Shown piece by piece: positions 10,965 through 37,556 of a stretch of DNA of 64,000 nt; positions within the stretch are counted from its first letter, which is position 1, and every line of letters starts with the position of its first letter. A program made the position numbers and the translations under genes. The notes under the pieces were generated by a model. It had not been told where the DNA came from and did no database searches. It saw nothing but the letters and a program-made list of their open reading frames with translations. Source of the DNA: Archangium sp. (GTDB taxonomy: Bacteria; Myxococcota; Myxococcia; Myxococcales; Myxococcaceae); the NCBI GenBank assembly GCA_047600485.1, contig JASGKS010000001.1, positions 6,976,259 through 7,040,258 on the forward strand, read 5' to 3'.

Positions 10965-13244
10965 TCACCCGCCGTCGAGCCCCTGCTTGCGCACGATGAC
11001 GCCGCCCATGCCGACGGCGAAGGGCCCGACGTCGCCGAAGCCGCCCATGCCGTAGAACGCACGCGTGGTCGGTGACGGCACGACGCTCCACACTTCGGAG
11101 TTGGGATCGAAGTGCCACAACACGCCGCGGCCGTTCGCGAGGACTCCCGTCGAGCCGCCGTCGTCGCCCGCGGCCCAGATGTCTCCGCCCGGCATCACGT
11201 ACGTGGCGCGCAGGTGACCTGCGTCGACGGTGTCGGCGACGAAGCCACCATCGGGGAATCGGCGCCACGCGGTCGCGGTGCCGACGATGGAATACAGCGA
11301 GCCACCATCAGCGAAGTTCTGCGCGTGAATGGCGCGCAAGGTGCGGAACGTCTGCGGGATGTTCACGACGTCGTTCCAGCTCGAGCCGTTGTAGCGGCGC
11401 ACGCCGCCGAACTGCGCGCCGACCACCATGATGTCGCTCGACGACAGGCCCCACACGCCGCGCGGGTTTCCCGGCGTCTGCGCGAAGGCGTACATGGCCA
11501 TCGCTCCGCTGGCCGACGAGAAGATGTTCGCGCTGTCGTTGATGAACCAGTACGGGCCGCCCGGAGCGCCCCACGCGCCATACCACTCGGAGTCGTTCCC
11601 GAAGTCGTCGGTGACGAACACACCCGCGCTCTGCCGCAAGTAGTCGCGCCTGCTGCCGACCACGAAGACGCGGTTGGGCATCTCCGCGAAGCACGCGTTC
11701 CAATTCGTCGACCTCGTGGCGCGCACCACCGAGTCCCACCGTGCGCGATCTCCGACCACGACGCGCGTGAAGACGACCTGGTCTTCCGACGCGGCGTAGG
11801 CCTGCGAGGCGTACGTCATGGTGTCGGCGAAGCCACACACGCCGCGCACGTTGGTGGTGCCACCGAAGAAGAGCTCGCGCGCGCCGCCGTCGGTGACGAG
11901 CGCCATGGTGCCAAGGCCGCCCGCTGCGAACACCGTGTCGATGGACGTGGGCGTCACCGCGTAGAGCCCCGCATCACGCGTGAGCGGCGCCTGCACCAGA
12001 CCACCTTCGTCGAGCACACGCGTCACCACGCCGGAGAGCGTCGAGACCCACGGACCACCGAGGGTGAGCGTCATCGCTCCGACGCCGCCGGGAATGTTGG
12101 GGCCGTACTGCCGCCAGCCCGCGTCGGTCTGCCGCTCGAAGATGTTGCCGAACGATTGGTTGGTGACCTTCCACCCGACGTAGAGCTCGGGGCCGGCCGC
12201 GGCGAAGGCCATGGTCTCGCGCGTGTTGGGGTTGCCGTTCCACGGCGTCTCGCCCTGCCACATCGTCGCGTTGAGCGACGGCAGTCGATACGCGCGCGTG
12301 GTGGTGGCGGCGAAGACTTCACCGGTGTCGAGACCGGCGAGCGCGAGCACGTCGAAGGTGTTGCTGGGGTTGAGCCCCATGGTCGTCCACGTCGTGCCGC
12401 TGCGCTTCAAGATGGAGCCGCCGTTCGCCGCTGCGAAGGCCTGACCCGTCGGAGCGACCCACAGCGCGTTGATGCGGAACGCGCCCGGCGTCAGCTCGCG
12501 CTGCCACGTCGTGCCGTTGAAGTGCACGATGACGCCTTCATCACCGGCGACGAACACGTCCGATGGATTCGTTCCGTGCACCGCGTAGAGGTCGACCGTG
12601 GTGCCGACGTCGACCATGAAGGTGCGCTCGCCGTTCCAGAACAACACGGTGCCTGACTCGCCGACCGCCCACACCGTCTTCGGGCCGAACGCGAACGCGC
12701 CGAACAACGCGTTGCCCTGCGGGAGCGGATTTTCCCAGCAGAAGCCCTGCTGACAGAGCTTCGGCAATCCACACTGATTCGCGGTGACGGTGCCGCACTC
12801 TTCGGGGGCGAAGCACTCGCCGCATTCGATGCTGACTCCGCAGCCTGCGTCGAACGCACCGCACTGCGCGCTCGCCGGGCAGCTGCCGACGGGAATGCAC
12901 GGGCCCGCATCGACCGCTCCGGCGTCGGTTCCCGCGTCGTCTGCTCCCGCGTCGATTCCTGCGTCGTCTCCCGCGTCGACGTCACCCGCGTCGGGCGTGC
13001 CGGAATCGACGGAGCCCGCATCGACGCCGCCGTCCTTCGCTCCACCGTCGGTGCCGCCGTCGTTCTTCTTGGGAGGCTCTCCGTCGGCAAGTGGATGGCA
13101 GTAGTCGTCAGGCCAGCACTGCTGATCAGCCGCGCACTCGCCGTTCGCTCCGCAGCGATAGAGGACGTTCGACGGCAACTGGCAGCCGTTGATCATCGCG
13201 ACGGCGAAACCCGCGAACACCAGCACTCTCGCGCGCGTCACCAT
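10965..13244 (-). CDS. Lipoprotein with Cys-rich module, DAG-rich linker and beta-propeller-like W-x-G repeats
   Basis: Signal peptide/lipobox FAVAMINGC. Low-complexity DAGxDAG linker. Repeats of type GTVLFWNGERT / VIVHFNGTTWQ, similar to the 35067..37556 protein. Stop overlaps the upstream gene (13238..13244). Confidence 0.55.
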   Translation of the reverse strand: MVTRARVLVFAGFAVAMINGCQLPSNVLYRCGANGECAADQQCWPDDYCHPLADGEPPKKNDGGTDGGAKDGGVDAGSVDSGTPDAGDVDAGDDAGIDAGADDAGTDAGAVDAGPCIPVGSCPASAQCGAFDAGCGVSIECGECFAPEECGTVTANQCGLPKLCQQGFCWENPLPQGNALFGAFAFGPKTVWAVGESGTVLFWNGERTFMVDVGTTVDLYAVHGTNPSDVFVAGDEGVIVHFNGTTWQRELTPGAFRINALWVAPTGQAFAAANGGSILKRSGTTWTTMGLNPSNTFDVLALAGLDTGEVFAATTTRAYRLPSLNATMWQGETPWNGNPNTRETMAFAAAGPELYVGWKVTNQSFGNIFERQTDAGWRQYGPNIPGGVGAMTLTLGGPWVSTLSGVVTRVLDEGGLVQAPLTRDAGLYAVTPTSIDTVFAAGGLGTMALVTDGGARELFFGGTTNVRGVCGFADTMTYASQAYAASEDQVVFTRVVVGDRARWDSVVRATRSTNWNACFAEMPNRVFVVGSRRDYLRQSAGVFVTDDFGNDSEWYGAWGAPGGPYWFINDSANIFSSASGAMAMYAFAQTPGNPRGVWGLSSSDIMVVGAQFGGVRRYNGSSWNDVVNIPQTFRTLRAIHAQNFADGGSLYSIVGTATAWRRFPDGGFVADTVDAGHLRATYVMPGGDIWAAGDDGGSTGVLANGRGVLWHFDPNSEVWSVVPSPTTRAFYGMGGFGDVGPFAVGMGGVIVRKQGLDGG

Positions 13245-14080
13245 GCAATCACCGCCGCGGTGCCGAGGCCTGCGCCGACTGCGAGCGCTCCGATGCCGCC
13301 CAACACCAGCGGCGTGCTCGAGTCGTTGAGCTGCTGCGCCTGCTGATACGTGAGCGTCGAGCGCAGCCGGCCGTCGTCATTCGGCGCGCCCTGCGAGAGC
13401 GGACCACGCGAGACCGCTCCCACGGTGAGCAGTGCGGCTCCGGCGAGGAGCGACGCGACACCCGCGCCGCCCAACACCAGCGACGGCACGTGCGAGCGCG
13501 CGGGCGGGGGCGGAGGCGGAGGCAGCAACGGCTCCTCGGTGTTCTTCGGCGTGAGGTCGGTCGCCACCGGTGCGTCGTCTTTCTTCGGCTCGTCCTTCTT
13601 CACCTCGGGAGTCGGCGGTGGCGGCGACAACCGGTTCTTCACGCGCGCCGCGAAGCCCTGCAGCAGCGACGCGTCGAGCTTCGCCTTCTTCGGCAGCAAC
13701 AGACTGTCGGTCTCGACCACCGTCTCGTCACTCACGCGGAGCAGCTCGAGGCCGACCGAGAGCTCGGAGTCGATGATGGCGACGCTGAGCAGCACCACCC
13801 ACGGCACCTTGAGCTGACGACCGAGCTCCGCGAGACACGCCTTCTTGCCGTTGCAGTTCGCCGAGTCCTTCACCGAGATGCGCGCGAGCTGCTGCATCGC
13901 CGCTTCGTTGGTCATCGCCAACGACACGCCTTCGCTCGCGAGCAACTTCGACGCGTCGGAGGTGAGGGTCTTCGCAGTCGCAGCCGGTGCCGCCGTTCGC
14001 CGCCCCAACAACACCACCGTCTGTTCGCCATCGGGAGCGGCGGTGAGGCTCAACCCCACCAGCGCGACGAGCCAGGACAT
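13238..14080 (-). CDS. Membrane-anchored exported protein (signal peptide, Pro-rich linker, C-terminal TM)
   Basis: N-terminal signal peptide, PPPPPPP linker, C-terminal Gly/Ala-rich TM helix. Immediately downstream of the STPK on the same strand. Confidence 0.5.
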   Translation of the reverse strand: MSWLVALVGLSLTAAPDGEQTVVLLGRRTAAPAATAKTLTSDASKLLASEGVSLAMTNEAAMQQLARISVKDSANCNGKKACLAELGRQLKVPWVVLLSVAIIDSELSVGLELLRVSDETVVETDSLLLPKKAKLDASLLQGFAARVKNRLSPPPPTPEVKKDEPKKDDAPVATDLTPKNTEEPLLPPPPPPPARSHVPSLVLGGAGVASLLAGAALLTVGAVSRGPLSQGAPNDDGRLRSTLTYQQAQQLNDSSTPLVLGGIGALAVGAGLGTAAVIAW

Positions 14081-14107
14081 GCCCGCAAATCTCTCACAGC
14101 CACGCCA

Positions 14108-15643
14108 CTACCGGGTGAGGAACAAGCGCTCCCAATGGTCGAGCTGCTTTGCAATTTTTCCGCGCGCCGCGGGCGAGTCGGCCATGGTGATTTGCACCTT
14201 GTATTTGGCGAGGTACTGCAGCGCCGCGGGATCAGGCGACTCGCCCTCCGGGGTCTTCTTCCGCAACCGGGCTTCGAGGCTGGTGACGCGCTTCTTCAGC
14301 TCCGCCTCGCTCGGAGGTTGGCGCAGGTCTTTCTTCGGCAACGTGCCGTTCGGCAAGGGCGTGAGCTCGTCATCGGCGTCCTCGTCGGGCTCGCGCGCGG
14401 TGTCGGGAATGGTACCCACCGCGGGCACCTCTGGCGGCTTGCTGGGCGCGGGCTGCTCGACGGTCTTCGTCGGCTGAGGAGGTGGCGGCGTGTCGTTGAC
14501 GACTGGCGGCGTTTCAGACGGTCGCGTCACCGCGTAACCCACGGCGAGCAACACCACGATGCCGGCTGCAGCGAGCAGCGGCACGGCGCGCGACGTCGCC
14601 GCTTTCGGCAGCGCTTCATCGGTCGGCGCTTCGAGCTTCGCGGCCGGCAGCGCGTCATCGGTCTCTGCCGACTGCGCGCGCTCGACGGCGCGTTGTCCCG
14701 ATGCGCGCGCCTGACGCACCACGAACTCACCCGAGAGTGAAGGACGCGGGCCTTTGTTGAGCGAAGCAGCGGTCACCGAAGCAGCGCCCAGCGACTCGAG
14801 CATCGGCAGGAGCAGCTCGCGCAGCTCGTCGGCAGACTGCGGCCGCTCTTCCGGCTTCTTCGACATCAAGCGGAAGATCAGATCATCCAGCTCGACGGGC
14901 ACCTTCTTGAGCGAGCTGACGCGCGGCACCGGAGCGCGCACGTGCGCCACCATCACGTCGAACGGCGTGGGCGCGGTGAACGGCACCTGGCCGGTCAACA
15001 TCTCGAAGCCCATGCACCCCAGCGCGTAGAGGTCGGTGCGTGGAGAGACCGCTTTTCCCTGCGCCTGCTCGGGCGCCATGTAGTCGGGCGTGCCGGCGAC
15101 GGTGGCCTTCGCGGTCTGCTCGGTGACTCCGCTGAGGGTCGCCGATTTCTTCGCGAGCCCGAAGTCGAGCAGCTTCAAGAAGTAGCCGCCGTCGGGTTGG
15201 TCGCAGAGAAAGACGTTCGAGGGCTTCAGGTCGCGGTGGATGATCTGCGCTTTGTGCGCCGCCCCGAGCGGAGCGCACATGTCGAACATCAACTGCACCG
15301 CCTCGAGCTGCGGCAGCACGCGCCCGGCGAGGTACGCCTCGAGGCCACGGCCTTCGAGGTACTCCATGATGATGTACGCGCGCCCGTCGGGGAGCCGGCC
15401 GATGCCGAAGATGCCGGTGATGTTCTGGTGGTTGATGGCGTTGGCGGCCTGCGCCTCTTTCACCAACTGCTCGTAGTCGTTGTCGCTTCCGACCTTCAGC
15501 ACCTTGATGGCGGCGCGCTTCTGAATGACGGGGTGCAGCCCGCGGTAGACGATGCCCATGCCGCCCGAGGCGACGGCTTCCTGCACCTCGTACTCGCTGA
15601 GGCGCTGCCCGATGAGGGGATCTGCGGGTTCGGTGTCGCTCAC
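14108..15643 (-). CDS. Serine/threonine protein kinase (membrane-anchored)
   Basis: Kinase subdomains: GGMGIVYRG...AIK, HRDLKPSNVFL, DFGLAK, TPDYMAPEQ. Pro-rich linker and a TM helix after the kinase domain. Confidence 0.9.
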   Translation of the reverse strand: MSDTEPADPLIGQRLSEYEVQEAVASGGMGIVYRGLHPVIQKRAAIKVLKVGSDNDYEQLVKEAQAANAINHQNITGIFGIGRLPDGRAYIIMEYLEGRGLEAYLAGRVLPQLEAVQLMFDMCAPLGAAHKAQIIHRDLKPSNVFLCDQPDGGYFLKLLDFGLAKKSATLSGVTEQTAKATVAGTPDYMAPEQAQGKAVSPRTDLYALGCMGFEMLTGQVPFTAPTPFDVMVAHVRAPVPRVSSLKKVPVELDDLIFRLMSKKPEERPQSADELRELLLPMLESLGAASVTAASLNKGPRPSLSGEFVVRQARASGQRAVERAQSAETDDALPAAKLEAPTDEALPKAATSRAVPLLAAAGIVVLLAVGYAVTRPSETPPVVNDTPPPPQPTKTVEQPAPSKPPEVPAVGTIPDTAREPDEDADDELTPLPNGTLPKKDLRQPPSEAELKKRVTSLEARLRKKTPEGESPDPAALQYLAKYKVQITMADSPAARGKIAKQLDHWERLFLTR

Positions 15644-15739
15644 GAGTGGACGCGAAGACTCATAACCCGAAGCGCAGCGCGCTGAACGCCGATTGAAATT
15701 GCTGAACGACCAGCGTCGCTACCTTGACTGGACGGCACG

Positions 15740-17434
15740 ATGGCCAAGGCTGCGCGCCGAAAGATGCTGATCGCGACTCCCCCCGGCTGGCAGGCAGGCG
15801 ACCTCGTCGGCGGGCGCTTCACGTTGCTCGGTCGGCTCGCGTTCGGCGGCATGGCCGAGCTGTGGCTCGCGCGGCAAGGTGGCCCGCAGGGTTTCTCGCG
15901 CCTGGTGGTCGTGAAACGCGTGCTCGAGGCGCGCTCGAACGACCGCGAGCTGCTCGACATGTTCATCGAGGAAGCGCAGCTCGGCGCGCGCCTGCAGCAC
16001 CCGAACATCGTGCACACCGTCGACTTCGGTGAAGAGGCCGACGTCCCCTTCATCGTGCTCGAGTATTTGTTCGGCGAGACGTTCGCGCGCGTGCTTCGCG
16101 AGAGCCGCGTGCAGTCGAAAGACTGGCCTGCCCTCGCTTCGGCGCGCGTGATTTCCGACGCGGCGCTCGGGCTCGCGTCGGCGCACGAGCTCAAGGGGCT
16201 CGACGGTCAGCTGCTGAACATCGTGCACCGCGACGTGTCTCCGCAGAATCTGTTCGTGACGGTCGACGGTCTGGTGAAGGTCATCGACTTCGGCATCGCG
16301 CGCGCGGTCGATCGCCGCAGCCACACCGAGCACAACCAGCTGCGCGGCCGCGTCGCCTTCATGTCGCCCGAGCAGATTTCGTCGCAGCCGCTCGACGCGC
16401 GCGCCGACGTCTTCGCGCTCGGGCTGGTGCTGTGGGAAGCGGTGACCGGCGGAGCTCCCGACGCCAGCAACGACCCGGTGGCCATCATGCACGAGCGCGT
16501 GTCGGAGCGGCCGATTCCCCGAGCGCGCAGCCGCAACGCAGCGATCTCGGAAGCGCTCGACGAGGTCATCGCGCGCTCGGTGGAGAAGGACCTCACGCGT
16601 CGTTTCCAGACCGCGCGCGAATTTCACGAGGCGTTGGAAGGTGTGCTCAAGGCCGAGGGCGACGTGCCCACGGTGCAGGTGGCGGCGCTGCTCTCCGAGC
16701 GCTTCAAAGACAAACACGCCGCGCGCTCGCAGCTGGTGCAGCGGCTGGTGACCGAGACCAGCACCGCGCGGCTGAGCACGTCGACCATTCGTGCGCTGCG
16801 CACGGTGACGGAAGACATGCGCGCGGTGGCGACTCCGCCGAGCGCGGCCGACGTCACGACCGGGTCGAACGACGCGCCGGCGGCTGAGCCGAAGTCCATC
16901 GAGATTCAGATCGACGAAACACCGCAGCGCAAGTCGAAGGTGCCGTGGGCCATCGCGGCGCTCCTCCTGCTCGGGCTGGGAATTGGTGGGCTCGCTGCGT
17001 GGTACGCGCGCCAGGACCGTTCACAGCCGGAGGTCGTCGCCGCGCTGCCTTCACCTCGCGTCGATGCGCCCGCGCAGCCCCAGCCCACGCCCACTCCGAC
17101 GCAGCAGCCCGAGGCACCGAAAGTTCCAGAGCCGACGAACGTGGTCACGCCCTCGGTGCCTGCCGTGCCGAAGGACCCCGAGGTGAAAGTCGTTCCGCGC
17201 ACGCCGAAGACCGGCAAGCCCGCAGCGGCCACCGGACTGTTGCGCATCGACACGGTGCCGTGGACGCAGGTGTACCTGAAGGGGCGTAAGCTCGGAGACA
17301 CGCCGTTGGTCGACGTGCCGGTGCCCGCGGGCGAGCTCGAGCTGACTCTGGTGAACGACGAAGAGAAGATTCGCACTGTCATCGGCGTGGAAATCATCGC
17401 CGGCCAAATCACCACCAAACGACTGCAGTTCTGA
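15740..17434 (+). CDS. Serine/threonine protein kinase with C-terminal PEGA domain
   Basis: GGMAELWLA...VVVK, HRDVSPQNLFV, DFGIARA. TM helix and Pro-rich segment. C-terminal LLRIDTVPWTQVYLKGRKLGDTPLV...LELTLVND is PEGA-like. Confidence 0.9.
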   Translation: MAKAARRKMLIATPPGWQAGDLVGGRFTLLGRLAFGGMAELWLARQGGPQGFSRLVVVKRVLEARSNDRELLDMFIEEAQLGARLQHPNIVHTVDFGEEADVPFIVLEYLFGETFARVLRESRVQSKDWPALASARVISDAALGLASAHELKGLDGQLLNIVHRDVSPQNLFVTVDGLVKVIDFGIARAVDRRSHTEHNQLRGRVAFMSPEQISSQPLDARADVFALGLVLWEAVTGGAPDASNDPVAIMHERVSERPIPRARSRNAAISEALDEVIARSVEKDLTRRFQTAREFHEALEGVLKAEGDVPTVQVAALLSERFKDKHAARSQLVQRLVTETSTARLSTSTIRALRTVTEDMRAVATPPSAADVTTGSNDAPAAEPKSIEIQIDETPQRKSKVPWAIAALLLLGLGIGGLAAWYARQDRSQPEVVAALPSPRVDAPAQPQPTPTPTQQPEAPKVPEPTNVVTPSVPAVPKDPEVKVVPRTPKTGKPAAATGLLRIDTVPWTQVYLKGRKLGDTPLVDVPVPAGELELTLVNDEEKIRTVIGVEIIAGQITTKRLQF

Positions 17435-17436
17435 AC

Positions 17437-18459
17437 ATGCTCACTTCTCTGGTCACCGCTCTCGTCGTCACGGCCGCGCCTGCTGACTGGCTCGCAGTCG
17501 CTGAGAAGCAGTGCTTCGAGATGCAGTACCCCAAGTGTCTCGACTCGCTCGAGCGCGCGTGGGTGCGCGAAGGCAACTCGCGCGAGCAGGTGATTCGCAT
17601 TCTCGAGCTGACGGGCGTGACGGCGGCGCAGGTGAAGCAGAACGCGCGCAGCCAGGAAGGTCTGCGGCGGTTGTTCCTCATCGACTTCGCGCACACCTTC
17701 ACCGGTCGCTTTGCGCCGCGCGTGAACACGCAGATTCTCGAAGCGAAGAGCTGGGTGGGTCAGGTGCGGCCGCTCGCGTGGAGTGCGGCTCCCGCTGAGC
17801 TGGCCGGTGAGCATGTGCGCGCCGTTTCGATTCGCATCACCAACGACCCGATGAATCTCGGAACGTTGGTGAGGTTCCACACGCGCGCGGACGGCGGCGA
17901 GTGGAAGGTGAACGAGGTGACCGTCGAAAATTCCGCGGCGCGGCTCGACGTCGACGCGGGCGAGCTCGAGTGGTGGGCCGAATTGCTGACGGGAAATCGC
18001 GGCGTGCTGATGCCGGCGATGGGAAGCGAAGCGAGCCCGCAGCGTGAGCGCGCGACGAAGGCCCCGGTGGTCGCGAAGACCGTGCCGACCGATGACGTCG
18101 CGAAGAAGCCCGGGCCGGTCGCCGCGGTGGAGAACCTGAAGCAACCTGCGCCCAGTGCGGGCCCGCGTTTTCGCCCGGCGGCTTGGGTGATGACGGTGAC
18201 GGGAGCGCTCGCAGTCGGCGCGGGAGTCACCTTCGGGGTGATGTCTTCTTCGGCGCGTCAGCAGTTGATGATGCCGGTGCTCGACTCGGCGGGCGTGGTG
18301 CAGAACCAGACGCAGGCTGAAGCGTACGCGACCAACGCACGCATGCAGCGCGACGCGATTCTGGCGATGGCGCTGAGCATCGGCGGAGGTGTGGTGCTCG
18401 CGACCGGCGTGACGCTCTTCATCGTCGGTTCAGTCGTCGGCGTGAGTGTGCCCCTCTGA
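17437..18459 (+). CDS. Membrane-anchored periplasmic protein (paralog of 34033..35070)
   Basis: Signal peptide, about 190-aa domain, C-terminal TM. Shares RILELTGVTAAQ / EWWAELLTGN motifs with the 34033..35070 product. Start abuts the kinase stop (translationally coupled). Confidence 0.55.
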   Translation: MLTSLVTALVVTAAPADWLAVAEKQCFEMQYPKCLDSLERAWVREGNSREQVIRILELTGVTAAQVKQNARSQEGLRRLFLIDFAHTFTGRFAPRVNTQILEAKSWVGQVRPLAWSAAPAELAGEHVRAVSIRITNDPMNLGTLVRFHTRADGGEWKVNEVTVENSAARLDVDAGELEWWAELLTGNRGVLMPAMGSEASPQRERATKAPVVAKTVPTDDVAKKPGPVAAVENLKQPAPSAGPRFRPAAWVMTVTGALAVGAGVTFGVMSSSARQQLMMPVLDSAGVVQNQTQAEAYATNARMQRDAILAMALSIGGGVVLATGVTLFIVGSVVGVSVPL

Positions 18460-18468
18460 CCCGCTGAA

Positions 18469-20448
18469 TCAGAGACAGCTGCAGCCGCTCGCCATCGACG
18501 CTGAGTTTCGCGGAGTCAGCGGCGCGACCACGAAGTCACTCGAGTTGTCGTTGGTGTCGATGCACGCCGTCGCAGCACCAGAAGAATCACGGCGGAACAT
18601 CGCATCGGTGTTGACCAGGTGCGGAGGCGCGTTCTGCGCCACGCCCGCTCCCTCACGACAATTCGCCGTCGAACCGAAGCCCACGAGGTCGACCACCGTC
18701 GCGCTCGCGGCCATCGTCGGGCAGCCCGTGCTGTCGACCGCGACGGCCACCGCGCTGTTGGCGAGCAGCAACTTGCCGGTGGTCTGAGACATGTCGGTAT
18801 TGGTGACGGCATCGGGGGTCGGCAACGCGACACCGGTCCCCGACTGCGCGAAGCGCACGAGGAAGAAACCACCGGGCGGAATCGACGCTCCCGCCGCGAA
18901 CGCGTGCGAGACGTTGAAGGAAGTGGTGTTGGTCGCCGACGCGTACTGCAGCGACCACCCACTCAAGCTCGCCGCGGTCGTTCCACGGTTGTGCAGCTCG
19001 ACGTAGTCGGCGTTCGGAGTCGTCGCGCCAGTGCCACCGCGTCCGTACACCTGACTGATGACCACCGCGGGCGCGCACGCCGCGCCATTGAACGTCGCCG
19101 TGTTGTTCGGAGGCGCCACCGGCGCAGCACGACGGTCGGTCACGCTGCTCATCACGGTCACCGTGTACTGCGTGCCCGGCACCTGAGCCGCGGTGGTGAG
19201 CTGCGCGACGCGCGGGCTCGCGAGTGACGCGGCGCTGATTCCGAGCGGGCTCGAGGCACCGTCGATGATGGAGAACGCTCCGGCCTGCACCGTCGACGGT
19301 TCCAAATCTCGATTGAAGTTCACCAACACGCGCGAACCGGTCGGCGCATCAGCGCTCAGCACGCGCGGCGCAGGACACGTGCTCTGCATCACTTCCGCCA
19401 TCGTCCACGCGGAAGGAAGCGCTGACGGACCCGCGCGCCACAGCGGCGCGTTCGGCAACACCACGGTGCAGCCCGGCGCGAGCGACTGCTGACTCATGAG
19501 CGCGGTCGGCAATCGCAGCCGCAACGCGAGACCGCCATCGACCGTGCCCGACGAATCGAGCGACACGGCCTGGTAGCCGTTCGAAGGGAACGACGGGTCG
19601 GCCGCGACGTTCGCCACCAACGACACCAGCCGGCTCTCGTACTCATCGAGGCGCGTCGACTGCGTGAAGTCGATGGTGTCGATGGCGCTCGTGAAGCCGA
19701 GGAGCGACTGGCCCGTCGCGGTGCGCATCACGTCGGCATCGAGAATCAATCGCAGCCCCGCCACGCGACCGACGTGGTGCACGTCGAGCGTGAGGCGGTC
19801 TCCGGTGCTCAGACCACCCGCGATCATCGTCGGGTCGAGCGCGACGAAGATTCCCGGGCCCGCCGCGCTGCCTTGAATGAAGAAGCCCGGACCGTCATCG
19901 ACGCCCGCATCGGGAACGAGCGGCTTGAGCGCCGTCACGAGTGCTCCGACCACCGGCATGCTCACCATGCCGCCGTCGCCGAAATCGGCTTCGAGGCGAA
20001 CGGCGCGCAGTTGATCATCGACCGAGCCGCCATCGGTGGAGCCTGCGTCGGTGCCGGCGTCGGTCCCCGCGTCGTCGGTGCCCGCATCGTTGGAGCCCGC
20101 GTCGTCACCGCCGTCGTCGACGCCGCCTCCGCCGGTCGAACCGCCACCGCCGCCACCACCGCCACCGCCGCTCACGGCTCCGCCACCGCCAGTGCCTGCG
20201 TCATCGCCACCGCCGGTTGCGCCGCCGCCACCCGTCGTTCCACCGCCGCCGCCGCCGCCCGTGACTCCGCCGCCTCCACCACCGGTCGTGCTCGTCGCAC
20301 CGCACACGCCGTCGAAACAGCGGTCAGGCGCGACGCAATCGGAGTCCTTCGAGCAGTGGTAGCGCAGCCCGCTCAAGTCGACGGGCGACGGATCACACGC
20401 GCTGATCAGCACGAGGACGAGCCACGAGGAGCGCCAGGAGAAACGCAC
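18469..20448 (-). CDS. Lipoprotein with poly-Gly/DAG low-complexity region and C-terminal lamin-tail-domain (LTD)-like module
   Basis: Lipobox VLISAC. The G-rich run is encoded by about 20000-20300. The C-terminal YVELHNRGTTAASLSGWSLQY...IPPGGFFLVRF matches the LTD pattern (xELyN...dLsGW.L...g..f....i.aggfllV). Confidence 0.6.
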   Translation of the reverse strand: MRFSWRSSWLVLVLISACDPSPVDLSGLRYHCSKDSDCVAPDRCFDGVCGATSTTGGGGGGVTGGGGGGGTTGGGGATGGGDDAGTGGGGAVSGGGGGGGGGGSTGGGGVDDGGDDAGSNDAGTDDAGTDAGTDAGSTDGGSVDDQLRAVRLEADFGDGGMVSMPVVGALVTALKPLVPDAGVDDGPGFFIQGSAAGPGIFVALDPTMIAGGLSTGDRLTLDVHHVGRVAGLRLILDADVMRTATGQSLLGFTSAIDTIDFTQSTRLDEYESRLVSLVANVAADPSFPSNGYQAVSLDSSGTVDGGLALRLRLPTALMSQQSLAPGCTVVLPNAPLWRAGPSALPSAWTMAEVMQSTCPAPRVLSADAPTGSRVLVNFNRDLEPSTVQAGAFSIIDGASSPLGISAASLASPRVAQLTTAAQVPGTQYTVTVMSSVTDRRAAPVAPPNNTATFNGAACAPAVVISQVYGRGGTGATTPNADYVELHNRGTTAASLSGWSLQYASATNTTSFNVSHAFAAGASIPPGGFFLVRFAQSGTGVALPTPDAVTNTDMSQTTGKLLLANSAVAVAVDSTGCPTMAASATVVDLVGFGSTANCREGAGVAQNAPPHLVNTDAMFRRDSSGAATACIDTNDNSSDFVVAPLTPRNSASMASGCSCL

Positions 20449-20475
20449 GGGGCCTGAATGTACCCGAACGACTCT

Positions 20476-21402
20476 TCAGGCAAACAATCGGGCGAGGAGT
20501 CGCGCCGAAGTTCTGATGGACGTCGCGCCCACCCGCTGCGCCGACGAGAGCGTGACCGGCGCGTTCCAGTCGAAGTTCACGAGCCGTTCGAGGTGGCCAA
20601 ACTGCACGCAGCCCTCGAGCGAGAAGATGCGCACGTCGTCACACGCGCGCGCCGCGAGGCGCAAATCTCGCGCGAGCTGCTCGAAGGTCATCTTGGGGAG
20701 CGGATCAATTCCGCCTCCGGTGCTGCCGACGGCGACCGCGCGCACGCCGTGGTGCTTCGTCCACTGCTCGGTGAGACCGGGCCCGAAACGACCGAGCAGG
20801 CTCGAGTAGATCATCAGCACTTCGCGCTCGACCTCGACGTCGAGTGAGCCCGTGAAGCGCTGGAAGAACGCGCTCGACGCCGCGCGGTCCTCGAGCATCA
20901 GCGGGAACTGGTAGCTCTCGATGCTCCAGCCTTCGCTGCGCAGGCGCTGAATGAGCGCTCCGTATTGATCGAGCGCCCGCGCGCGACGACCGCGATTCCT
21001 CGAGCGGCCGGCCCACGCGCGCAACGCCTTGAATGGCGTCTTGAAGAACACCTCGAGCTCGCGCAGATCGGGCTCGAAGTCGAAGCCGAGCGAGGTGAGC
21101 GAGAGCCGATGCGCGTCGCGCCAACGCAGCAGCGATTCGACGCGCGCCACCACGTGCTCGTGATTTTCCGGAGTGGCGAAGTAGCCGTGCTGCGAATCGA
21201 GCAACAGCCACGCGCTGACGTTCACGCCTTCGCCGGCGAGCCGCTGTACCGCGCGTGCACGCTCGTCGCCCAGACAACGAAGGCCGATGGTGACTCCGGC
21301 GTTCAGCGCGCGGAGCTGCTCGAAGAGCTTCGGCGTCTCGAGCAGCGACGTGAGCTGCTGCGCGTCCTGCTCATTGAAAAAGGCGAGGCGAGAGGGCTTC
21401 AC
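20476..21402 (-). CDS. Hypothetical protein
   Basis: Intact 308-aa ORF with coding-like composition. No motif recognized. Confidence 0.45.
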   Translation of the reverse strand: MKPSRLAFFNEQDAQQLTSLLETPKLFEQLRALNAGVTIGLRCLGDERARAVQRLAGEGVNVSAWLLLDSQHGYFATPENHEHVVARVESLLRWRDAHRLSLTSLGFDFEPDLRELEVFFKTPFKALRAWAGRSRNRGRRARALDQYGALIQRLRSEGWSIESYQFPLMLEDRAASSAFFQRFTGSLDVEVEREVLMIYSSLLGRFGPGLTEQWTKHHGVRAVAVGSTGGGIDPLPKMTFEQLARDLRLAARACDDVRIFSLEGCVQFGHLERLVNFDWNAPVTLSSAQRVGATSIRTSARLLARLFA

Positions 21403-25063: not shown

Positions 25064-25108
25064 GGCGCACAGTCAGCCCCAGAGCGGACTCGTGGCACAA
25101 TCGACAGA

Positions 25109-31570: not shown

Positions 31571-31640
31571 GACGTGTTCGCGGGGCAAATGTACTCTGCG
31601 CGCGCGTCATTTCTCTCGTCGTCATCAAGGAGCGCTCCAC

Positions 31641-32273: not shown

Positions 32274-33992
32274 TCAGAGCTTCAGCTTCTTCGTCGTCGT
32301 CTTGCCCGCGCTGATCTCGACTTCGATCGCGCGCTTGATGCCCTTGGCGTCGTTCACCAGCGTGAGCACGTGAATGCCCGGCGGCAACGTCACCTCGACC
32401 AGCGGCGTGTCGCCCAACTTGCGCCCCTTGAGAAACACCTCGGTGTATGGCGTCGTATCGAGCGTCAGCTTCCCCTTCGCGATCTTCACCGGAGTCTTCA
32501 CCGGCTGATCAGTCTTCGGCGGCTCGACGGGCTTCGGCGTCTCGGCAGCGAGCCCCGCATCGACCGCAGCAGTCGGCACAGGCGGCGGTTCCTTCACCGG
32601 CTCCTTCACGACCACCGGCGGAGGCACCACCTTCGCGATGACCGGTTCCTTCTTCGGCTCCTCGGACGACGGCAGATGCGTGACGAGGTACGCGACACCG
32701 ACCAGCAACACGATGCCGACACCCACCGCGATGGCCGCGCGCGCTTTTCTCTCGCGCTGCATGCGCGCGAGCGTCGGCTCTCCGACCTGCGTGGGAATTC
32801 CTTCGACCACGGGAATCGAACTTCCACTCGCGGTGACTTCCGGCGCGCCGAGCGGTGACGGCGCAGGAGCGAGCTCGGCCGCCGGCAACGTCGGGTGGCT
32901 GCGAATCGGCGAGAGGTGCTGCGGCAAGTGCTTCAACTGCGACGGCGTCTTCGCCGACGGCTCGAGCGAAATCTGCGCGATGCGCAATTTGCCCATGCGC
33001 CGGTCAGCGTCGAACAGCCCGTTCATGAACTCCGCGACCGCGCGCTCGCTGCGCACGTACTGCTGACTCACGAGAAACGACGCGAGCGCATCGGCGAGCT
33101 CAGCGGCGCTCTGGTAGCGCTGCTCCAAATCGCGCTCCATCGCCTTCAAGATGATGGCGTCGAGCGCCGGCGGCACCTGCGGCCGAATGCTGCTCGGCAC
33201 GGGAATCGGAGCGCTCACCACCGCCTTCAACGTCGCGAGGTCGCTCTCGCGCTTGAACGGCCGCTGCAGCGTCACCAACTCGTAGAGCACCGTGCCGAGC
33301 GCGAACACGTCGCTGCGGCGATCGAGCGGATCTCCCGCGGCCTGCTCGGGAGACACGTACGCGACCTTGCCCTTCAACGTGCCGGCCGCGGTCTTCGTGA
33401 TGTTCGACTCCGCGCGCGCGATGCCGAAGTCCACCAGCTTCACGGTGCCGTGGTACGTGACGATGACGTTCGACGGGCTCACGTCACGGTGCACGACGTT
33501 TTGGGGCCGGCCGTTCTGATCAGTCAGCTCGTGCGCGAAGTGCAGACCGGTCGCCGCTCCGACGATGACGTCGCACGCGGTGGCGATGGGCACCATGCGC
33601 TCGGCGCGCTTGCTCGCCTGCATGATGCTCGCGAGGTCCTCACCGGGGAGGTGCTCCATCGCGAGGTAGTACTGCCCGCCGACTTCGCCGAAGTCGTAGA
33701 TGCGCACCACGTTGTTGTGGTCGAGCGTCGCCGCGAGCCGCGCCTCGTCGAGGAACATCTGGACGAACTCGTCGTTGCTGCACAGCTCGGGGAGAATCAC
33801 CTTCAGCACGGCGGTCTTCTCGAAGCCGTGCGGCCCGCGCTGCACCGCGAGCCAGATCTGCGCCATGCCGCCCACCGCGATGCGGCGAATCAGCCGGTAC
33901 TTTCCGAACTCGATGGGCTGAAGCCCGTCGGCGCCAGGGGTCTGATCCACGCGGTCGGTGCGCAGCTTACTCCGCCACACAGAGCAGACCAC
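32274..33992 (-). CDS. Serine/threonine protein kinase with C-terminal PEGA domain
   Basis: GGMAQIWLA...VLK, HRDVSPSNVIV, DFGIARA, TM helix. C-terminal KLTLDTTPYTEVFLKGRKLGDTPLVEVTLPPGIHVLTLVND is PEGA-like. Paralog of 15740..17434. Confidence 0.9.
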   Translation of the reverse strand: MVCSVWRSKLRTDRVDQTPGADGLQPIEFGKYRLIRRIAVGGMAQIWLAVQRGPHGFEKTAVLKVILPELCSNDEFVQMFLDEARLAATLDHNNVVRIYDFGEVGGQYYLAMEHLPGEDLASIMQASKRAERMVPIATACDVIVGAATGLHFAHELTDQNGRPQNVVHRDVSPSNVIVTYHGTVKLVDFGIARAESNITKTAAGTLKGKVAYVSPEQAAGDPLDRRSDVFALGTVLYELVTLQRPFKRESDLATLKAVVSAPIPVPSSIRPQVPPALDAIILKAMERDLEQRYQSAAELADALASFLVSQQYVRSERAVAEFMNGLFDADRRMGKLRIAQISLEPSAKTPSQLKHLPQHLSPIRSHPTLPAAELAPAPSPLGAPEVTASGSSIPVVEGIPTQVGEPTLARMQRERKARAAIAVGVGIVLLVGVAYLVTHLPSSEEPKKEPVIAKVVPPPVVVKEPVKEPPPVPTAAVDAGLAAETPKPVEPPKTDQPVKTPVKIAKGKLTLDTTPYTEVFLKGRKLGDTPLVEVTLPPGIHVLTLVNDAKGIKRAIEVEISAGKTTTKKLKL

Positions 33993-34032
33993 TTCATGAA
34001 GCCGCGAAACTCAGCGCGAGTAGAGTCCGCGC

Positions 34033-35070
34033 ATGTCCCTCTTCGTCTGCGTAGTCGCCGCGACGTTGGCGGTGGCTCCTCCGGAGCTGAAGAACGCCGA
34101 AGGGTTGATGGCGAAATACAAATACGCCGAGGCGCAGGCGCAGCTGAAGAAGGCGCGCGCGGCGAAGGGTCTCGATCGCGCGAGCTTGCTGCGCATTCTC
34201 GAGCTGCAGGGCATCGCGGCGGGACAACAGCGACAAGCCGGGCCCGCGACGCAGGCGTTCAGCGAGCTGCTCACGCTCGACCCGGGTCACAAGCTCGCCG
34301 AGGAATTCGCGCCGCGCGTGATGACTCCGTTCTTCGAGGCCGGTCAGGCGGTCAACGAAGCGGGCGCGCTCGAGCTCAAAGCCGCGGCGGTCTCGGCGAG
34401 CAACGGTCGACTCACCGCGCTCAACGTCGAGGTGCCGAAGGACGCGCTGAAGCTCGTGCGCTCGTTGGTGTTCCACATCTCCATCAACGCGCCGTGGTCG
34501 ACGCGCACCGTTCCACTCGAGGGCGGCAAGGCGAGCACGCCGGTCGACGCGACCGAGGTGCAGTGGTGGGCGGAGCTGCTCGGAGAAAACGACGCGCAGT
34601 TGGTCGTGCTCGGGTCCGAGAGCAATCCACTGGTGGCGACGCCGCCGGCACCGATGGTGAGCGCGACTGCGCCGCCTCCGCTTCCGCCGTCAGCCGAACC
34701 GGTGGTGACGAAGAGCGCGAGCAGTGGTGGAGCGGTGCGCACGGCGTCGTTCTTCGTGATGGGTGGCGCGGTGGTGGCCGCGGGAGTCGGCGCGTTCTTC
34801 GGAGTGCGCTCGTCGACGGCGCTCGGTTCCATCACCGGAGCGACGCGAGATGATCAGGGCCGCATCACTTCGCTCACCGAACGCGAAGCCGCCGCGCGCG
34901 GTGCGCAGGCCGCGAGTGATGGGCTCATCGCGAACATCTTGTTCGTCAGCGCGGGAGTGGTGGCCGCGGCCGGCATCGTGATGTTCATCGTCGGCGGGCC
35001 GGAGACGCCCGCACGCGTGACGCTCGCTCCTGCGCTCGGTGGCTTCGCGCTGAGCGGGAGCTTTCCGTGA
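34033..35070 (+). CDS. Membrane-anchored periplasmic protein (paralog of 17437..18459)
   Basis: Signal peptide. RILELQGIAAGQ and QWWAELLGEN motifs shared with 17437..18459. C-terminal TM helix. Confidence 0.55.
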   Translation: MSLFVCVVAATLAVAPPELKNAEGLMAKYKYAEAQAQLKKARAAKGLDRASLLRILELQGIAAGQQRQAGPATQAFSELLTLDPGHKLAEEFAPRVMTPFFEAGQAVNEAGALELKAAAVSASNGRLTALNVEVPKDALKLVRSLVFHISINAPWSTRTVPLEGGKASTPVDATEVQWWAELLGENDAQLVVLGSESNPLVATPPAPMVSATAPPPLPPSAEPVVTKSASSGGAVRTASFFVMGGAVVAAGVGAFFGVRSSTALGSITGATRDDQGRITSLTEREAAARGAQAASDGLIANILFVSAGVVAAAGIVMFIVGGPETPARVTLAPALGGFALSGSFP

Positions 35071-37556
35071 GTGTGGTCGAAGGCAAAGCCCCCCTCTCCC
35101 GCCAGGGAGAGGGTCGGGGTGAGGGTGAACCGCACCACAATCTCAGCGCGCGATTCGTCGGAGGGGCGCGCAACACGTCGTGGCGCTCGCCGCTGCTCCT
35201 CGCGGCGTTCGTCTTCGCCGGCTGTCAGTGCACTCCGCCAGATCTCTCGCAGCAACGCTTCGCGTGCACGACGCTCGCCGATTGCGCCGATGGCCACGAC
35301 TGCATCGACGGCGAGTGTCGCAGTCCCTCGAGCAATGGAGACGGCGGAGCGACCGGAGGCGGCACAGCGACCGGAGGCGGCGCAGCGACCGGCGGCGGCG
35401 CAGCAACTGGTGGCGGCGCAGCGACGGGTGGTGGCGCAACGACTGGCGGCGGCGCTGCAACCGGAGGCGGCGGCGGCGCGACTGGCGGCGGATCCACAAC
35501 CGGTGGTGGCGGTGGTGCCACTGGTGGTGGCTCAACGACCGGAGGCGGCGGCTCGACCGGTGGCGGAGGCGGCACCTGCACTCCCGAAAGCGACCCCGAC
35601 TTCTGCACGCGACTCGCAAAGAACTGCGGCAGCGTGACGGCGAACGACAACTGCTCCGTCTCGCGCACCGCGACCTGCGGCACGTGCAACGGCGGAAACT
35701 TCTGCGGCGGCGGCGGCGCAGCGAACGTCTGCGGCCCCTGTCAGCCCGAGAACGACGTCGGCTTCTGCGGCCGCCTCGCGAAGAACTGCGGCCAGCTCAC
35801 CGCCAACGACAACTGCAACGTCCCGCGCACCGCGATGTGCGGCAGCTGTACTTCACCGCTCACCTGCGGCGGCAGCGTGACGCCGAACGTGTGCGGTGGC
35901 GGCCCCATCTGCACCGCCGACTGGTGTTGGAGCCGCCCGCAGATTCAAGGCAACCATCTGCACGACACCGCCGTCGTCTCAGCGACCGACGTGTGGGCCG
36001 TCGGAGACATCGGCACGATTCTCCACTGGGACGGCACGGCCTGGGGCAAGGCGCCGAACACCTTCGGCGATGATCTCTTCGCGGTCTGGGCCAACGGCAC
36101 GAGCAACGCGTGGGCGGCCGGGCGTGACGGCACCATCCTCCACTGGAATGGAAACGACTGGTCTCCGCTCGGAAACCTCGCCACCAACCAGACCATCTTC
36201 GGCCTGTGGGGCAGCTCGACGAACGACGTGTGGGCCGCGGGCACTGGCGGCGTGCTCCGCCGGTGGAACGGCTCGACGTGGGTCGCGGCGACGAGCAACA
36301 CCGCCAACACCTTCTACGGCCTCGGTGGCTCAGCGACGAACGACGTGTGGGCCGTCGGCGAAGGCGGAATGATTCAGCACTTCAACGGCACCGCGTGGAG
36401 CAACGTCACGAGCCCCACCACCAACGAGCTCGACGGCGTGTGGGCGAGCAGCACGACCAACGCGTGGGCCGTCGGTGACAACGTCATCCTGCGGTGGAAC
36501 GGCACGATGTGGACCGACGTGACGCCGACCACGTCGACTGGGTTCTTCGGCGTGTGGGGCACCGGACCCAACGACGTGTGGGCCGTCGGCGATCGCCTCA
36601 CGATGCGCTTCAACGGCACGTCGTGGAACGCAGTGGGCACTCCGGTCGCGAGTGAGTGGCACGGCGTGCACGGCGCGGGCAGCGAAGTGTTCGCGGTCGG
36701 AATCGGCGGAGCGACGATGCGGTGGACCGGAATGGCGTGGACCGAGCTCACCGCGGGTCCGTTCGAGACGCTCTACGGCCTGTTCGCGTTCTCGACGACC
36801 GACGTTTGGGCTTCAGGCTCGCGCGGAACGATTCTGCACTTCGACGGCACGACGTGGACACGCTCCAACTCCGGTACGACGAACGACCTCAACGCGCTGT
36901 GGGGCTCGGCGCCGAACAACATCTGGGTCGCGGGCGACAACGTGATGAAGCGGTGGAACGGAACGTCGTGGACCACCCAACCCGCTCCGCCGCGGCAGAT
37001 CTACGACCTGCACGGACTCTCGGCGAACGACATCTGGGCGTCGGGCGTCGACGGTTTGATGATGCACTACAACGGCACGAGCTGGTCGGTGGTGAACACC
37101 GGCATGTCGACCACCAACGACTACAACACCGTGTGGGCCCTCGCCGCGAACGACGTCTGGGCGCTCGGTGACAACGGGCTCGCGGGCCACTGGGACGGCA
37201 TGAACTGGAGCGTGGTGGCGCCGTTCATCACCACCAATTCCGTCTACGCGATGTCGGGCAACGCGGGCACGCTCATCGGCGTCGGCCCGGGCGCGACCAT
37301 CGTGAAATTCTCGGGAGGCACGTGGACCGACGTGTCCGTCGGCGGCAGCGATTACTACGGCGTCACGATGGTCACTCCGAGTGAGAGCTACATCGTCGGT
37401 GGCGGCGTCTCGATGCGCTACGACACCGTCTCTCCGCAGCAATACCTCGACCTGCCGAACTACTACGGGTTCTACAACATCGCCGCCATTGCACAGCCCA
37501 GCGGCCCCGTGCTCTTCACCGTCGGCACCGCAGGCGGGGTCCTGCAACACAACTGA
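35067..37556 (+). CDS. Lipoprotein with (ATGGG)n Gly-rich linker, duplicated Cys-rich module and beta-propeller-like W-x-G repeats
   Basis: Lipobox FVFAGCQ. GGATGGGTATGGGAATGGG... repeats. Two copies of C...DFCTRLAKNCG..TANDNC.V.RTA.CG.C. At least 15 repeats of type GTILHWDGTAW / VWAVG / LRWNGTMW. The true start is uncertain because the repeat element lies in the 5' region. Confidence 0.6.
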   Translation: MSVVEGKAPLSRQGEGRGEGEPHHNLSARFVGGARNTSWRSPLLLAAFVFAGCQCTPPDLSQQRFACTTLADCADGHDCIDGECRSPSSNGDGGATGGGTATGGGAATGGGAATGGGAATGGGATTGGGAATGGGGGATGGGSTTGGGGGATGGGSTTGGGGSTGGGGGTCTPESDPDFCTRLAKNCGSVTANDNCSVSRTATCGTCNGGNFCGGGGAANVCGPCQPENDVGFCGRLAKNCGQLTANDNCNVPRTAMCGSCTSPLTCGGSVTPNVCGGGPICTADWCWSRPQIQGNHLHDTAVVSATDVWAVGDIGTILHWDGTAWGKAPNTFGDDLFAVWANGTSNAWAAGRDGTILHWNGNDWSPLGNLATNQTIFGLWGSSTNDVWAAGTGGVLRRWNGSTWVAATSNTANTFYGLGGSATNDVWAVGEGGMIQHFNGTAWSNVTSPTTNELDGVWASSTTNAWAVGDNVILRWNGTMWTDVTPTTSTGFFGVWGTGPNDVWAVGDRLTMRFNGTSWNAVGTPVASEWHGVHGAGSEVFAVGIGGATMRWTGMAWTELTAGPFETLYGLFAFSTTDVWASGSRGTILHFDGTTWTRSNSGTTNDLNALWGSAPNNIWVAGDNVMKRWNGTSWTTQPAPPRQIYDLHGLSANDIWASGVDGLMMHYNGTSWSVVNTGMSTTNDYNTVWALAANDVWALGDNGLAGHWDGMNWSVVAPFITTNSVYAMSGNAGTLIGVGPGATIVKFSGGTWTDVSVGGSDYYGVTMVTPSESYIVGGGVSMRYDTVSPQQYLDLPNYYGFYNIAAIAQPSGPVLFTVGTAGGVLQHN
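35086..35123. repeat. Dispersed palindromic repeat, copy 2 (inverted orientation)
   Basis: cccctctcccgccagggagagggtcggggtgagggtg is the reverse complement of the 32192 element, with one substitution in the loop. Confidence 0.8.

Follow-up and report, generated by a model that had tools for sequence, protein, structure and literature searches.

Three kinase-adaptor-lipoprotein gene triads in an Archangium genome, tentatively read as envelope-spanning receptor units of Hanks-type kinases

The activation of receptor Ser/Thr kinases, PknB and PknD among them, is attributed to ligand-driven dimerisation, and PknD of Mycobacterium tuberculosis carries a single six-bladed NHL propeller fused to its kinase. 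In the RcsF-IgaA and NlpE-CpxA systems, signals pass from a lipoprotein to an inner-membrane protein, which in turn controls a kinase. Tandem beta-propellers are used for transmembrane signalling in the sensor regions of Bacteroides hybrid two-component systems, and in phototrophs Ycf48 serves photosystem II assembly as a soluble or lumenal factor. Here, we describe a stretch of 64,000 nucleotides (nt) from Archangium sp. (GenBank assembly GCA_047600485.1, contig JASGKS010000001.1, positions 6,976,259 to 7,040,258; G+C content, 66.8%), which is referred to as the window. The window contains three gene triads of two types, each with a kinase, an adaptor, and a lipoprotein gene (Table 1). The triads can be likened to PknD and the PASTA kinases as receptor kinases with an external sensor, though not by sequence membership. 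Our preferred reading, to which we give slightly less than an even chance, is that they are modular envelope-spanning receptor units for Hanks-type Ser/Thr kinases.

All eight open reading frames (ORFs) named in a preliminary description of the window were present in the ORF list and translations exactly where it had placed them. That description had taken the genes for two paralogous copies of a two-gene cassette, consisting of a membrane-anchored protein and a propeller lipoprotein; two module types and a third unit were found instead. It had also listed kinA2 and memA2 without a lipoprotein, having missed the T2a lipoprotein gene, whose product carries the same N-terminal knot as the others. 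The gene junctions it had pointed out were borne out: the stop of memA and the start of propA overlap by 7 nt (ATGGTGA), kinA2 and memA2 are 2 nt apart, and kinB and memB are divergent with an intergenic gap of 40 bp. In addition, the stop of memB and the start of propB overlap by 4 nt (GTGA), and the T2a lipoprotein gene is convergent with memA2, its end lying 10 nt past that of memA2. A coding-frame composition filter (GC3 > 0.78 and GC2 < 0.6) was passed by seven of the eight ORFs, with GC3 values of 0.83-0.88. The exception was propB, possibly due to its Gly-rich linker; it was accepted as coding because it has homologues and a confident structure model. No promoter-like sites were detected by a promoter scan of both regions, and the numbers of terminator-like sites (6 against 5.4±2.6 in shuffled sequences, and 7 against 4.3±2.3) were within the shuffle range and thus uninformative on operon boundaries. 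A protein identical to memB (P0001) is annotated as a hypothetical protein in a metagenome-assembled genome (MAG) named "Archangium sp.". Related loci, numbered with the prefix L below, were collected in Myxococcota MAGs from genome and metagenome scans and exact-protein look-ups; the metagenome scan used the narrow alignment A1 and therefore reached close relatives only.

Table 1. Gene triads of the window and the genes that compose them (positions in the window)
Feature	Position	Strand	Product (aa)	Content or role	Basis
T1 triad	10965-15643			kinA1, memA and propA	
T2a triad	15740-20448			kinA2, memA2 and T2a lipoprotein	
T2b triad	32274-37556			kinB, memB and propB	
kinA1	14108..15643	-	511	T1 kinase	Pfam, catalytic motifs, TM scan
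memA	13238..14080	-	280	T1 adaptor	Family alignment A3 and profile comparison
propA	10965..13244	-	759	T1 lipoprotein	Sequence, knot search, TRF, propeller HMM
kinA2	15740..17434	+	564	T2a kinase	Pfam, BLASTP, motifs, TM scan
memA2	17437..18459	+	340	T2a adaptor, memB paralogue	BLASTP, family HMM, loop statistics
T2a lipoprotein	18469..20448	-	659	T2a lipoprotein	Translation, knot search, Pfam
kinB	32274..33992	-	572	T2b kinase	Pfam, motifs, TM scan
memB	34033..35070	+	345	T2b adaptor	
propB	35067..37556	+	829	T2b lipoprotein	

The Pfam cut-off for PF00069 (31.7 bits) was exceeded by kinA1 (148.5 bits), kinA2 (110.5 bits), and kinB (110.1 bits). The catalytic motifs of kinA1 are canonical (HRDLKPSN, DFG, and APE), and its catalytic domain is followed by a single transmembrane (TM) helix at amino acids (aa) 354-372 and, beyond a Pro-rich linker, by a periplasmic C-terminus that is short and helical and has no PEGA domain. 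On the other hand, kinA2 and kinB have the catalytic loops HRDVSPQN and HRDVSPSN, TM helices at aa 401-419 and 419-437, Pro-rich and Pro/Lys-rich linkers, and C-terminal PEGA-like domains, that of kinA2 being a beta domain. Because each kinase has one TM helix, the C-terminal stalk and small domain are placed outside the cytoplasm. The paralogy of kinA2 and kinB, proposed earlier, was evident over their full length (36% identity; BLASTP E 1.6e-91). Their earlier designation as PEGA kinases was supported in part: a homologous kinase in L003 has a recorded PEGA match, but the PF08308 scores of kinA2 (16.0 bits) and kinB (14.8 bits) are below the gathering cut-off of 20.8 bits. The C-terminal ~70 aa are conserved across all type-2 kinases. 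The canonical HRDxKxxN loop was absent from kinA2, kinB, and each of the ten PEGA-type kinases examined elsewhere (L001, L003, L008-L010, L020, L021, and L023-L025). In these proteins Ser replaces Lys, giving HRD[VI]SPxN, while the Asp of HRD, the Asn, DFG, and SPE are kept and KGK is conserved in the activation segment. Nothing was found in the literature on an HRDVSP kinase variant.

The three kinases also matched the PADLOC models PD-T4-6 and mad6, with E values down to 1e-78, and NCBIfam MADS6 at the domain level. The kinases might accordingly serve in phage defence, as part of a PD-T4-6 or Stk type system with their neighbours as accessory defence genes. This reading was rejected as highly improbable because the PADLOC matches are confined to the generic Hanks kinase domain. 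Furthermore, the MADS6 scores of 115-157 bits compare with a cut-off of 460 bits, the adaptors and lipoproteins have no PADLOC match, the architecture faces the periplasm (signal peptide, lipobox, and predicted disulfides), and the chromosomal context is ordinary and syntenic across genomes.

The adaptors fall into two families. The memA protein consists of a signal-like N-terminus, a periplasmic domain of ~130 aa, a Pro-rich linker, and a TM-loop-TM anchor; its Cys pair, C76 and C82, is invariant in alignment A3, and its loop (aa ~224-256, nt 13313-13411) carries DGRxRS-T-L-T244. This family has 45 members, none of them named. The products of memA2 and memB, previously noted to share motifs, are 30% identical over 326 aa (BLASTP E 1.9e-28), and memA2 matched the hidden Markov model (HMM) of its family with an E value of 2.4e-119. 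A structure model of memB based on alignment A1 has pLDDT values above 90 for residues 17-205. After a signal-like N-terminus, it predicts a TPR-like helical domain (residues 17-110), a beta-sandwich (114-202), a disordered Pro-rich stalk, a TM hairpin of two long helices (233-268 and 283-320), and a short conserved C-terminal tail. The predicted cytoplasmic loop of memB (nt ~34804-34929) reads D-x2-G-x-I-T-S-L-T282-E, and that of memA2 (nt ~18244-18381) contains the conserved Thr292 (NQ-T-QAEA).

Among the pairwise alignments proposed in the preliminary description, those of the kinases, of memA2 with memB, and of the propellers were significant, but memA showed no similarity to memA2 or memB (BLASTP E > 1). 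When the memA and memB family profiles were compared, only the C-terminal anchor aligned (hhalign probability 95.6%, E 1.2e-8, ~75 columns), that is, the Pro-rich stalk and two TM helices joined by a loop of 35-45 aa. Reciprocal adaptor-family HMM matches of 1e-5 to 1e-6 agree with this alignment. As judged from these profiles, the periplasmic domain of memA is unrelated to that of memA2 and memB, and only the two-helix anchor is common to them. The loop motif across adaptors is D-x2-G-x-[VI]-T-[GS]-L-[T/S]-[QE]-x-[EQ]-A; its conserved Thr/Ser corresponds to T244 in memA, T292 in memA2, and T282 in memB, and is kept in 41 of 43 TPR-type and 15 of 16 memA-type sequences. Canonical signal peptides occur in adaptor homologues (one reads MKRALVIVSLLCAAPVLA, with cleavage before D). 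Together with the memA Cys pair, they indicate that the N-terminal domains are periplasmic, and the hairpin loop is then predicted to lie in the cytoplasm.

Neither adaptor family had a Pfam or NCBIfam match, and PDB sequence searches with both adaptor profiles gave no match. An exhaustive HMM search showed that the memB family is far larger than a word-indexed search had implied, comprising 1,213 representative clusters at E <= 1e-10, of which 283 reached E <= 1e-30. The members that were looked up are all unnamed or hypothetical proteins from MAGs or metagenomes. Generic TPR similarity, at 8-20% identity, was seen with LpoA, LpoB, LpoP, BamD, CpoB/YbgF, and PilF; in contrast to proteins of the Lpo and BamD kinds, however, the TPR-like protein of the window has a C-terminal hairpin as its inner-membrane anchor, and its partner is a kinase rather than a peptidoglycan synthase or the BAM complex.

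A lipobox was found in all three lipoproteins (propA, VAMING/C; propB, FVFAG/C; T2a lipoprotein, LVLISA/C; here the slash precedes the predicted acylated Cys), and their relatives have LAG/C, LG/C, VG/C, or SG/C. Directly behind it lies a four-Cys knot. In propA the knot reads C-x9-YRC-x5-C-x5-CWPDDYC (nt 13098-13184), and the N-terminus INGC/QLPSNVLYRC-x5-C-x5-C-x5-C is a variant of the knot. In the T2a lipoprotein it is DLSGLRYHC-x5-C-x5-C-x4-C (nt 20302-20397) within an N-terminus of LVLISAC/DPSPVDLSGLRYHC-x5-C-x5-C-x4-C, followed by a Gly-rich linker. The knot of propB, DLSQQRFAC-x5-C-x5-C-x4-C (nt 35223-35318), follows FAGC/QCTPPDLSQQRFAC-x5-C-x5-C-x4-C, with lipobox, knot, and tether arranged as in the T2a lipoprotein. 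The pattern C-x(2-14)-[FY]-x-C-x5-C-x5-C-x(3-5)-C was searched for in six frames of 392 kb, and 21 of its 24 matches were in a gene directly adjoining an adaptor gene. The L014 knot, spotted by eye, has a variant x5/x6/x5 spacing. Two subtypes were recognised, "VL[YF][RK]C…CW.DGYCH" with memA-type adaptors and "D[LIV].…RF.C…" with TPR-type adaptors; the subtype thus tracks the adaptor and kinase type independently of the outer domain. This provides the strongest indirect argument for the knot as a docking element. In several loci, the adaptor and lipoprotein genes overlap, by 4 nt in type 2 and 7 nt in type 1, L013 being a type-1 locus with 4 nt.

The tethers behind the knots are encoded by tandem repeats detected by TRF, with periods of 12-39 nt in propA (12904-12993, DAG type) and 18-54 nt in propB (35337-35570, GGGAAT type with an 18-nt unit). 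Relatives have other units, AGGST in L019 and GGGGGAV in L014; thus, tether length and composition appear to evolve fast. As a separate observation on propB, an unusual stretch of ~41 aa precedes the hydrophobic core of the signal peptide (35067-35222). The only in-frame start codons are GTG at 35067 and GTG at 35073, and an in-frame Met in the counterparts of L010, L019, and L020 (MITRCWLLL...) would give a conventional short signal peptide.

This arrangement resembles the logic of RcsF-IgaA-Rcs and NlpE-CpxA, in which a disulfide-bonded small-domain lipoprotein with a long disordered tether, an inner-membrane protein, and a kinase are combined. The resemblance is one of logic only: no Pfam or NCBIfam match to RcsF, IgaA, or NlpE was obtained among the adaptors and lipoproteins, the window kinases are Hanks Ser/Thr kinases rather than histidine kinases, and the knot lies next to the lipid anchor, with a large variable domain at the far end of the tether.

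The domains beyond the tether vary. In propA, a D/A/G-rich linker and a Cys-rich module are followed by Ycf48-like propeller repeats at aa ~166-759 (nt 10968-12749; propeller HMM E 2e-113). In propB, a GGGAAT-type linker is followed by two Cys-rich modules and a propeller at aa ~286-829 (nt 35919-37553). In agreement with the beta-propeller proposed earlier, structure prediction gave a confident model of a tandem 7+7-bladed Ycf48-like propeller. Among solved structures, those nearest in sequence to the repeats are Ycf48/HCF136 (PDB 5ojp and 2xbg; E 4.5e-16), but those chains, of 326-347 residues, form about one ring, whereas the window proteins have two predicted rings together with a lipid anchor, knot, tether, and Cys modules. 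On sequence comparison, then, propA and propB relate to Ycf48 at the superfamily level and are not members of its family. The propeller profile also showed a weak similarity to PDB 3v9f (E 2.7e-4), which was deposited as a hybrid two-component sensor kinase/response regulator. Besides being marginal in similarity, that sensor differs in being fused to a histidine kinase and response regulator, with no lipoprotein, adaptor, or Cys modules.

The likeness of the two propeller lipoproteins claimed in the preliminary description held to the extent that propA and propB are 34% identical over 240 aa (BLASTP E 1.3e-25), with additional repeat-level matches, and share Cys-rich segments after the lipobox. 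They did not, however, behave as a specific paralogue pair: in the family alignment their identity is 23%, compared with 25-34% for unrelated superfamily members, so that propA is closer to such members than to propB. The superfamily is large (6,337 of 8,000 scored candidates were significant), and some of its members carry PF14870. For propA and propB, no Pfam match was obtained at E <= 0.1, PF14870 included. The only Pfam or NCBIfam matches on the lipoproteins were those on the T2a lipoprotein, whose outer domain combines Big_5 (26.7 bits) with a Lamin-tail domain (LTD; 46.1 bits) and has no propeller.

Other type-2 loci show the same variability. A tandem propeller is the outer domain in T2b, L001, L005, and L019, and L010 and L020 have knot and linker sequences like those of L019 on contigs that end before the outer domain. 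L009 has an Ig-like or carboxypeptidase-regulatory-like region, L003 has Cys-rich repeats and then a Gly-rich region, and the lipoprotein of L007 is another Cys-rich protein. The propeller had been regarded as a constant element of the cassette. From these sequences, the constant part of the lipoprotein is instead the N-terminal Cys knot, and the other invariable elements of the unit are the kinase and the membrane hairpin of the adaptor.

The linkage of the genes was then compared among loci. A kinase adjoins the type-2 adaptor in 17 of the 22 adaptor loci with upstream sequence (the window twice, L001, L003, L005, L007-L010, and L018-L025), and the C-terminus of this kinase, where present, is a PEGA-like domain. 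Relatives of kinB are divergent from the mem genes in L001, L003, L005, L008-L010, and L018-L025. The flanking genes of L003 and L009 are different, indicating that the type-2 linkage is more than inherited synteny. In the type-1 loci, the co-directional order kinase, adaptor, and lipoprotein was observed in the window, L013, L014, L032, and L033, with different flanking genes in L014 and L033, and a kinase is adjacent in five of seven loci. Upstream of the memA-family genes are kinA1 relatives with 60% (L013), 63% (L033), and 58% (L032) identity over most of their length and one with 55% identity in the kinase domain (L014). Downstream of memA-family genes, propA-related proteins are encoded in L013, L014, L031, L032, and L033. 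The kinase subtype tracks the adaptor type, PEGA-like domains and HRDVSP occurring with TPR adaptors and HRDLKP with the memA type.

The locus L005 of Archangium MAG-75 has the gene order of the window from kinA1 onward, and there ~74 bp separate the kinA1 orthologue from the next gene, an orthologue of that at 20476-21402. The 4.8 kb at 15644-20475, which are absent from MAG-75, correspond exactly to the T2a triad and form a clean indel between conserved genes. It is therefore apparent that T2a was gained or lost as one unit, kinase included. Chance adjacency in a kinase-rich genome was rejected on account of this indel and of the linkage across different flanks. The neighbourhood survey (type 2, L003, L009, and the metagenome loci L018-L025; type 1, L014, L032, and L033) thus agrees with the preliminary description in that the linkage of kinase, membrane protein, and lipoprotein is repeated and conserved; the first observation was real though mis-parsed, and its reading as a conserved kinase-linked envelope module was broadly right.

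From the gene linkage, domain architecture, topology signals, and gain and loss of whole modules, we infer the contacts, ligands, and phosphorylation steps of the following tentative model. The kinase would be an inner-membrane protein whose catalytic domain faces the cytoplasm, with one TM helix leading to a Pro-rich stalk that ends in a small periplasmic domain, a PEGA-like one in type 2 and a short helical one in type 1. The adaptor would present a type-specific periplasmic domain (TPR-like with a beta-sandwich in type 2, disulfide-containing in type 1) on a Pro-rich stalk, held by the common two-helix hairpin with its predicted cytoplasmic loop (D-x2-G-x4-L-T/S). The lipoprotein would consist of the lipid anchor, four-Cys knot, long low-complexity tether, and variable outer domain. 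The knot may dock the lipoprotein onto the adaptor, the periplasmic domain of the kinase, or both, and the outer domain may bind the signal, which could be a glycan or some other polymer of the envelope or of prey. Clustering or a conformational change driven by the ligand would be relayed via the adaptor to the kinase and alter its dimerisation and autophosphorylation. A candidate site for phosphorylation or docking is the loop Thr/Ser (T244 in memA, T292 in memA2, and T282 in memB).

Two single proteins, P0099 and P0119, bear on the direction of control. Each has an N-terminal Hanks kinase, one TM helix, and propeller repeats of the propA/propB family; the existence of such fusions makes it plausible that a kinase senses through this propeller type. 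The fusions and the triads recall PknD-type receptor kinases, with a Hanks kinase, one TM helix, and an extracytoplasmic beta-propeller. Unlike in PknD, the kinase and propeller of the window are encoded by separate genes rather than in one polypeptide, the propeller is on a lipoprotein with an adaptor interposed, and it is a predicted tandem 7+7 Ycf48-like propeller that is swapped for other domains in other type-2 loci. Control might also run in reverse: the adaptor and lipoprotein would be a regulated binding, adhesion, or enzyme output, and the kinase would phosphorylate the adaptor loop to control their assembly, stability, or activity. This would account for the Thr/Ser that both adaptor families conserve in the loop predicted to be cytoplasmic, for outer domains that resemble binding or structural modules (tandem propeller, Big_5 with LTD, and Ig-like), for the lack of a downstream signalling partner encoded nearby, and for the adaptor and propeller lipoprotein of L031, which have no adjacent kinase. 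We nevertheless consider reversed control unlikely. The fusions put the propeller at the usual sensor position of a receptor kinase, the stalked periplasmic domains of the kinases themselves suggest extracytoplasmic input, and no enzyme signature was found in any lipoprotein by Pfam or NCBIfam.

Several observations weigh against the triads as receptor units. Members of the memB family in L011, L012, L027, and L030 have no neighbouring kinase, nor do the memA-family members of L016, where the adaptor is alone, and L031, where the adaptor and propeller are kept; in L026, L028, and L029 no kinase was visible, in little or no upstream sequence. L021, L022, and L025 have kinase-adaptor pairs with no knot lipoprotein. 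Given the Lys-to-Ser change, the PEGA-type kinases may be weak or non-catalytic. No FHA protein, PP2C phosphatase, or transcription factor partner was found near the triads. The anchor similarity lies in Gly/Ala-rich TM segments, in which composition can inflate profile comparisons, and the assignment of the lipoproteins to the outer or inner membrane was guessed solely from the +2 residue.

The kinase-less members of both adaptor families, together with the adaptor-lipoprotein pairing and its overlapping stop and start codons across the surveyed loci (in the memA family, even in the absence of an adjacent kinase), would also fit an envelope structure in which the adaptor and knot lipoprotein tether the inner membrane to the outer membrane or cell wall, as in Lpo or Tol-Pal, the kinase being merely a frequent co-located and co-expressed neighbour with no direct coupling to them. 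Long Pro- or Gly-rich stalks, which are associated with periplasm-spanning proteins, occur in all three proteins. Such a structural role appears distinctly improbable to us, however, in view of the adjacent kinases in 17 of 22 type-2 and five of seven type-1 loci with varying flanks and orientations (divergent or co-directional), the co-variation of kinase subtype and adaptor type, and the gain or loss of the kinase together with the other two genes. The kinase-less TPR-type adaptors of L011, L012, L027, and L030, with their relatives, form a subclade with a K/E/P-rich stalk. In L011, L012, and L030 the adaptor has ~398 aa and a conserved context of its own, following a ferredoxin-reductase-like gene near a conserved membrane protein without assigned function. 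L012 also encodes the C-terminal part of a PEGA-type kinase (2-955) and, co-directional with it, a shorter adaptor of 275 aa (966-1793) that lacks the beta-sandwich and consists of a signal peptide, TPR region, coiled coil, Pro-rich stalk, and TM hairpin (family HMM E 1.8e-10); a gene for a propeller lipoprotein lies 3 kb away.

A more far-reaching form of the receptor reading is that the Myxococcota possess a hitherto unrecognised plug-in receptor system, in which knot lipoproteins with interchangeable ligand-binding domains would each be matched to an adaptor and a stalked kinase, the signal would be written onto the loop Thr, and HRDVSPxN would be a dedicated catalytic variant. In this full form the proposal is speculative, and we think it rather doubtful.

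Other features of the window were also recorded. Directly beside the 3' end of kinB, a RimK-like ATP-grasp gene (30620-31588, minus strand) is divergent from a gene for a peptide of ~180 aa (~31638-32177, plus strand). The peptide contains eight tandem repeats with TT[MLK]A[LV]GEE, encoded by a DNA repeat with a period of 60-63 nt (31791-32105), which fit TTxxxxEE, the plesiocin core motif. TTxxxxEE occurs in the preprint on plesiocin, a group-2 graspetide (10.1101/2021.03.09.434688). From these features, 30620-32177 is probably a multi-core graspetide (omega-ester peptide) cluster for a ribosomally synthesised and post-translationally modified peptide. Directly downstream of propB, an operon at 37620-40762 encodes a type III polyketide synthase, an ICMT/PEMT-like methyltransferase, a GNAT acetyltransferase, and an FAD monooxygenase; it is kept in L001 and L005 and resembles a lipid cluster of the alkylresorcinol or alkylpyrone type. 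The 1,268-aa product of the gene at 26061-29867 (minus strand) has a filamin repeat and eight Cys-rich repeats of the DUF4215 type, and is encoded in part by a 93-nt tandem repeat of 7.2 copies (26362-27030). This gene and the two before it (24365-26020, SDR and LysR) had no match in Archangium MAG-75. A secreted (predatory) enzyme that degrades cell walls may be encoded at 40554-42392 (plus strand), the product of which has four PG_binding_1 repeats and ends in a GH19 chitinase/lysozyme-like region.

The preliminary description had called the architecture functionally uncharacterised. This agrees with our searches, in which the adaptors and lipoproteins belonged to no Pfam or NCBIfam family and no paper was found on them or on the PEGA-kinase module (PEGA plus kinase, and the myxobacterial kinome literature). 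To our knowledge, it is not known what most myxobacterial eukaryote-like kinases sense. Myxobacteria have, according to one study (PMC2887360), among the largest bacterial sets of these kinases. Three protein families outside Pfam and NCBIfam would be defined, one of them with at least 283 clusters at 50% identity, and even if the model is wrong, a conserved synteny of hypothetical proteins in uncultured Myxococcaceae and Archangiaceae is left. If it is true, the kinase-adaptor-lipoprotein unit would be a concrete, testable model of how signals enter these kinases, one that names its parts: a docking knot, a common hairpin bearing a candidate phospho-site, and outer domains that can be exchanged.

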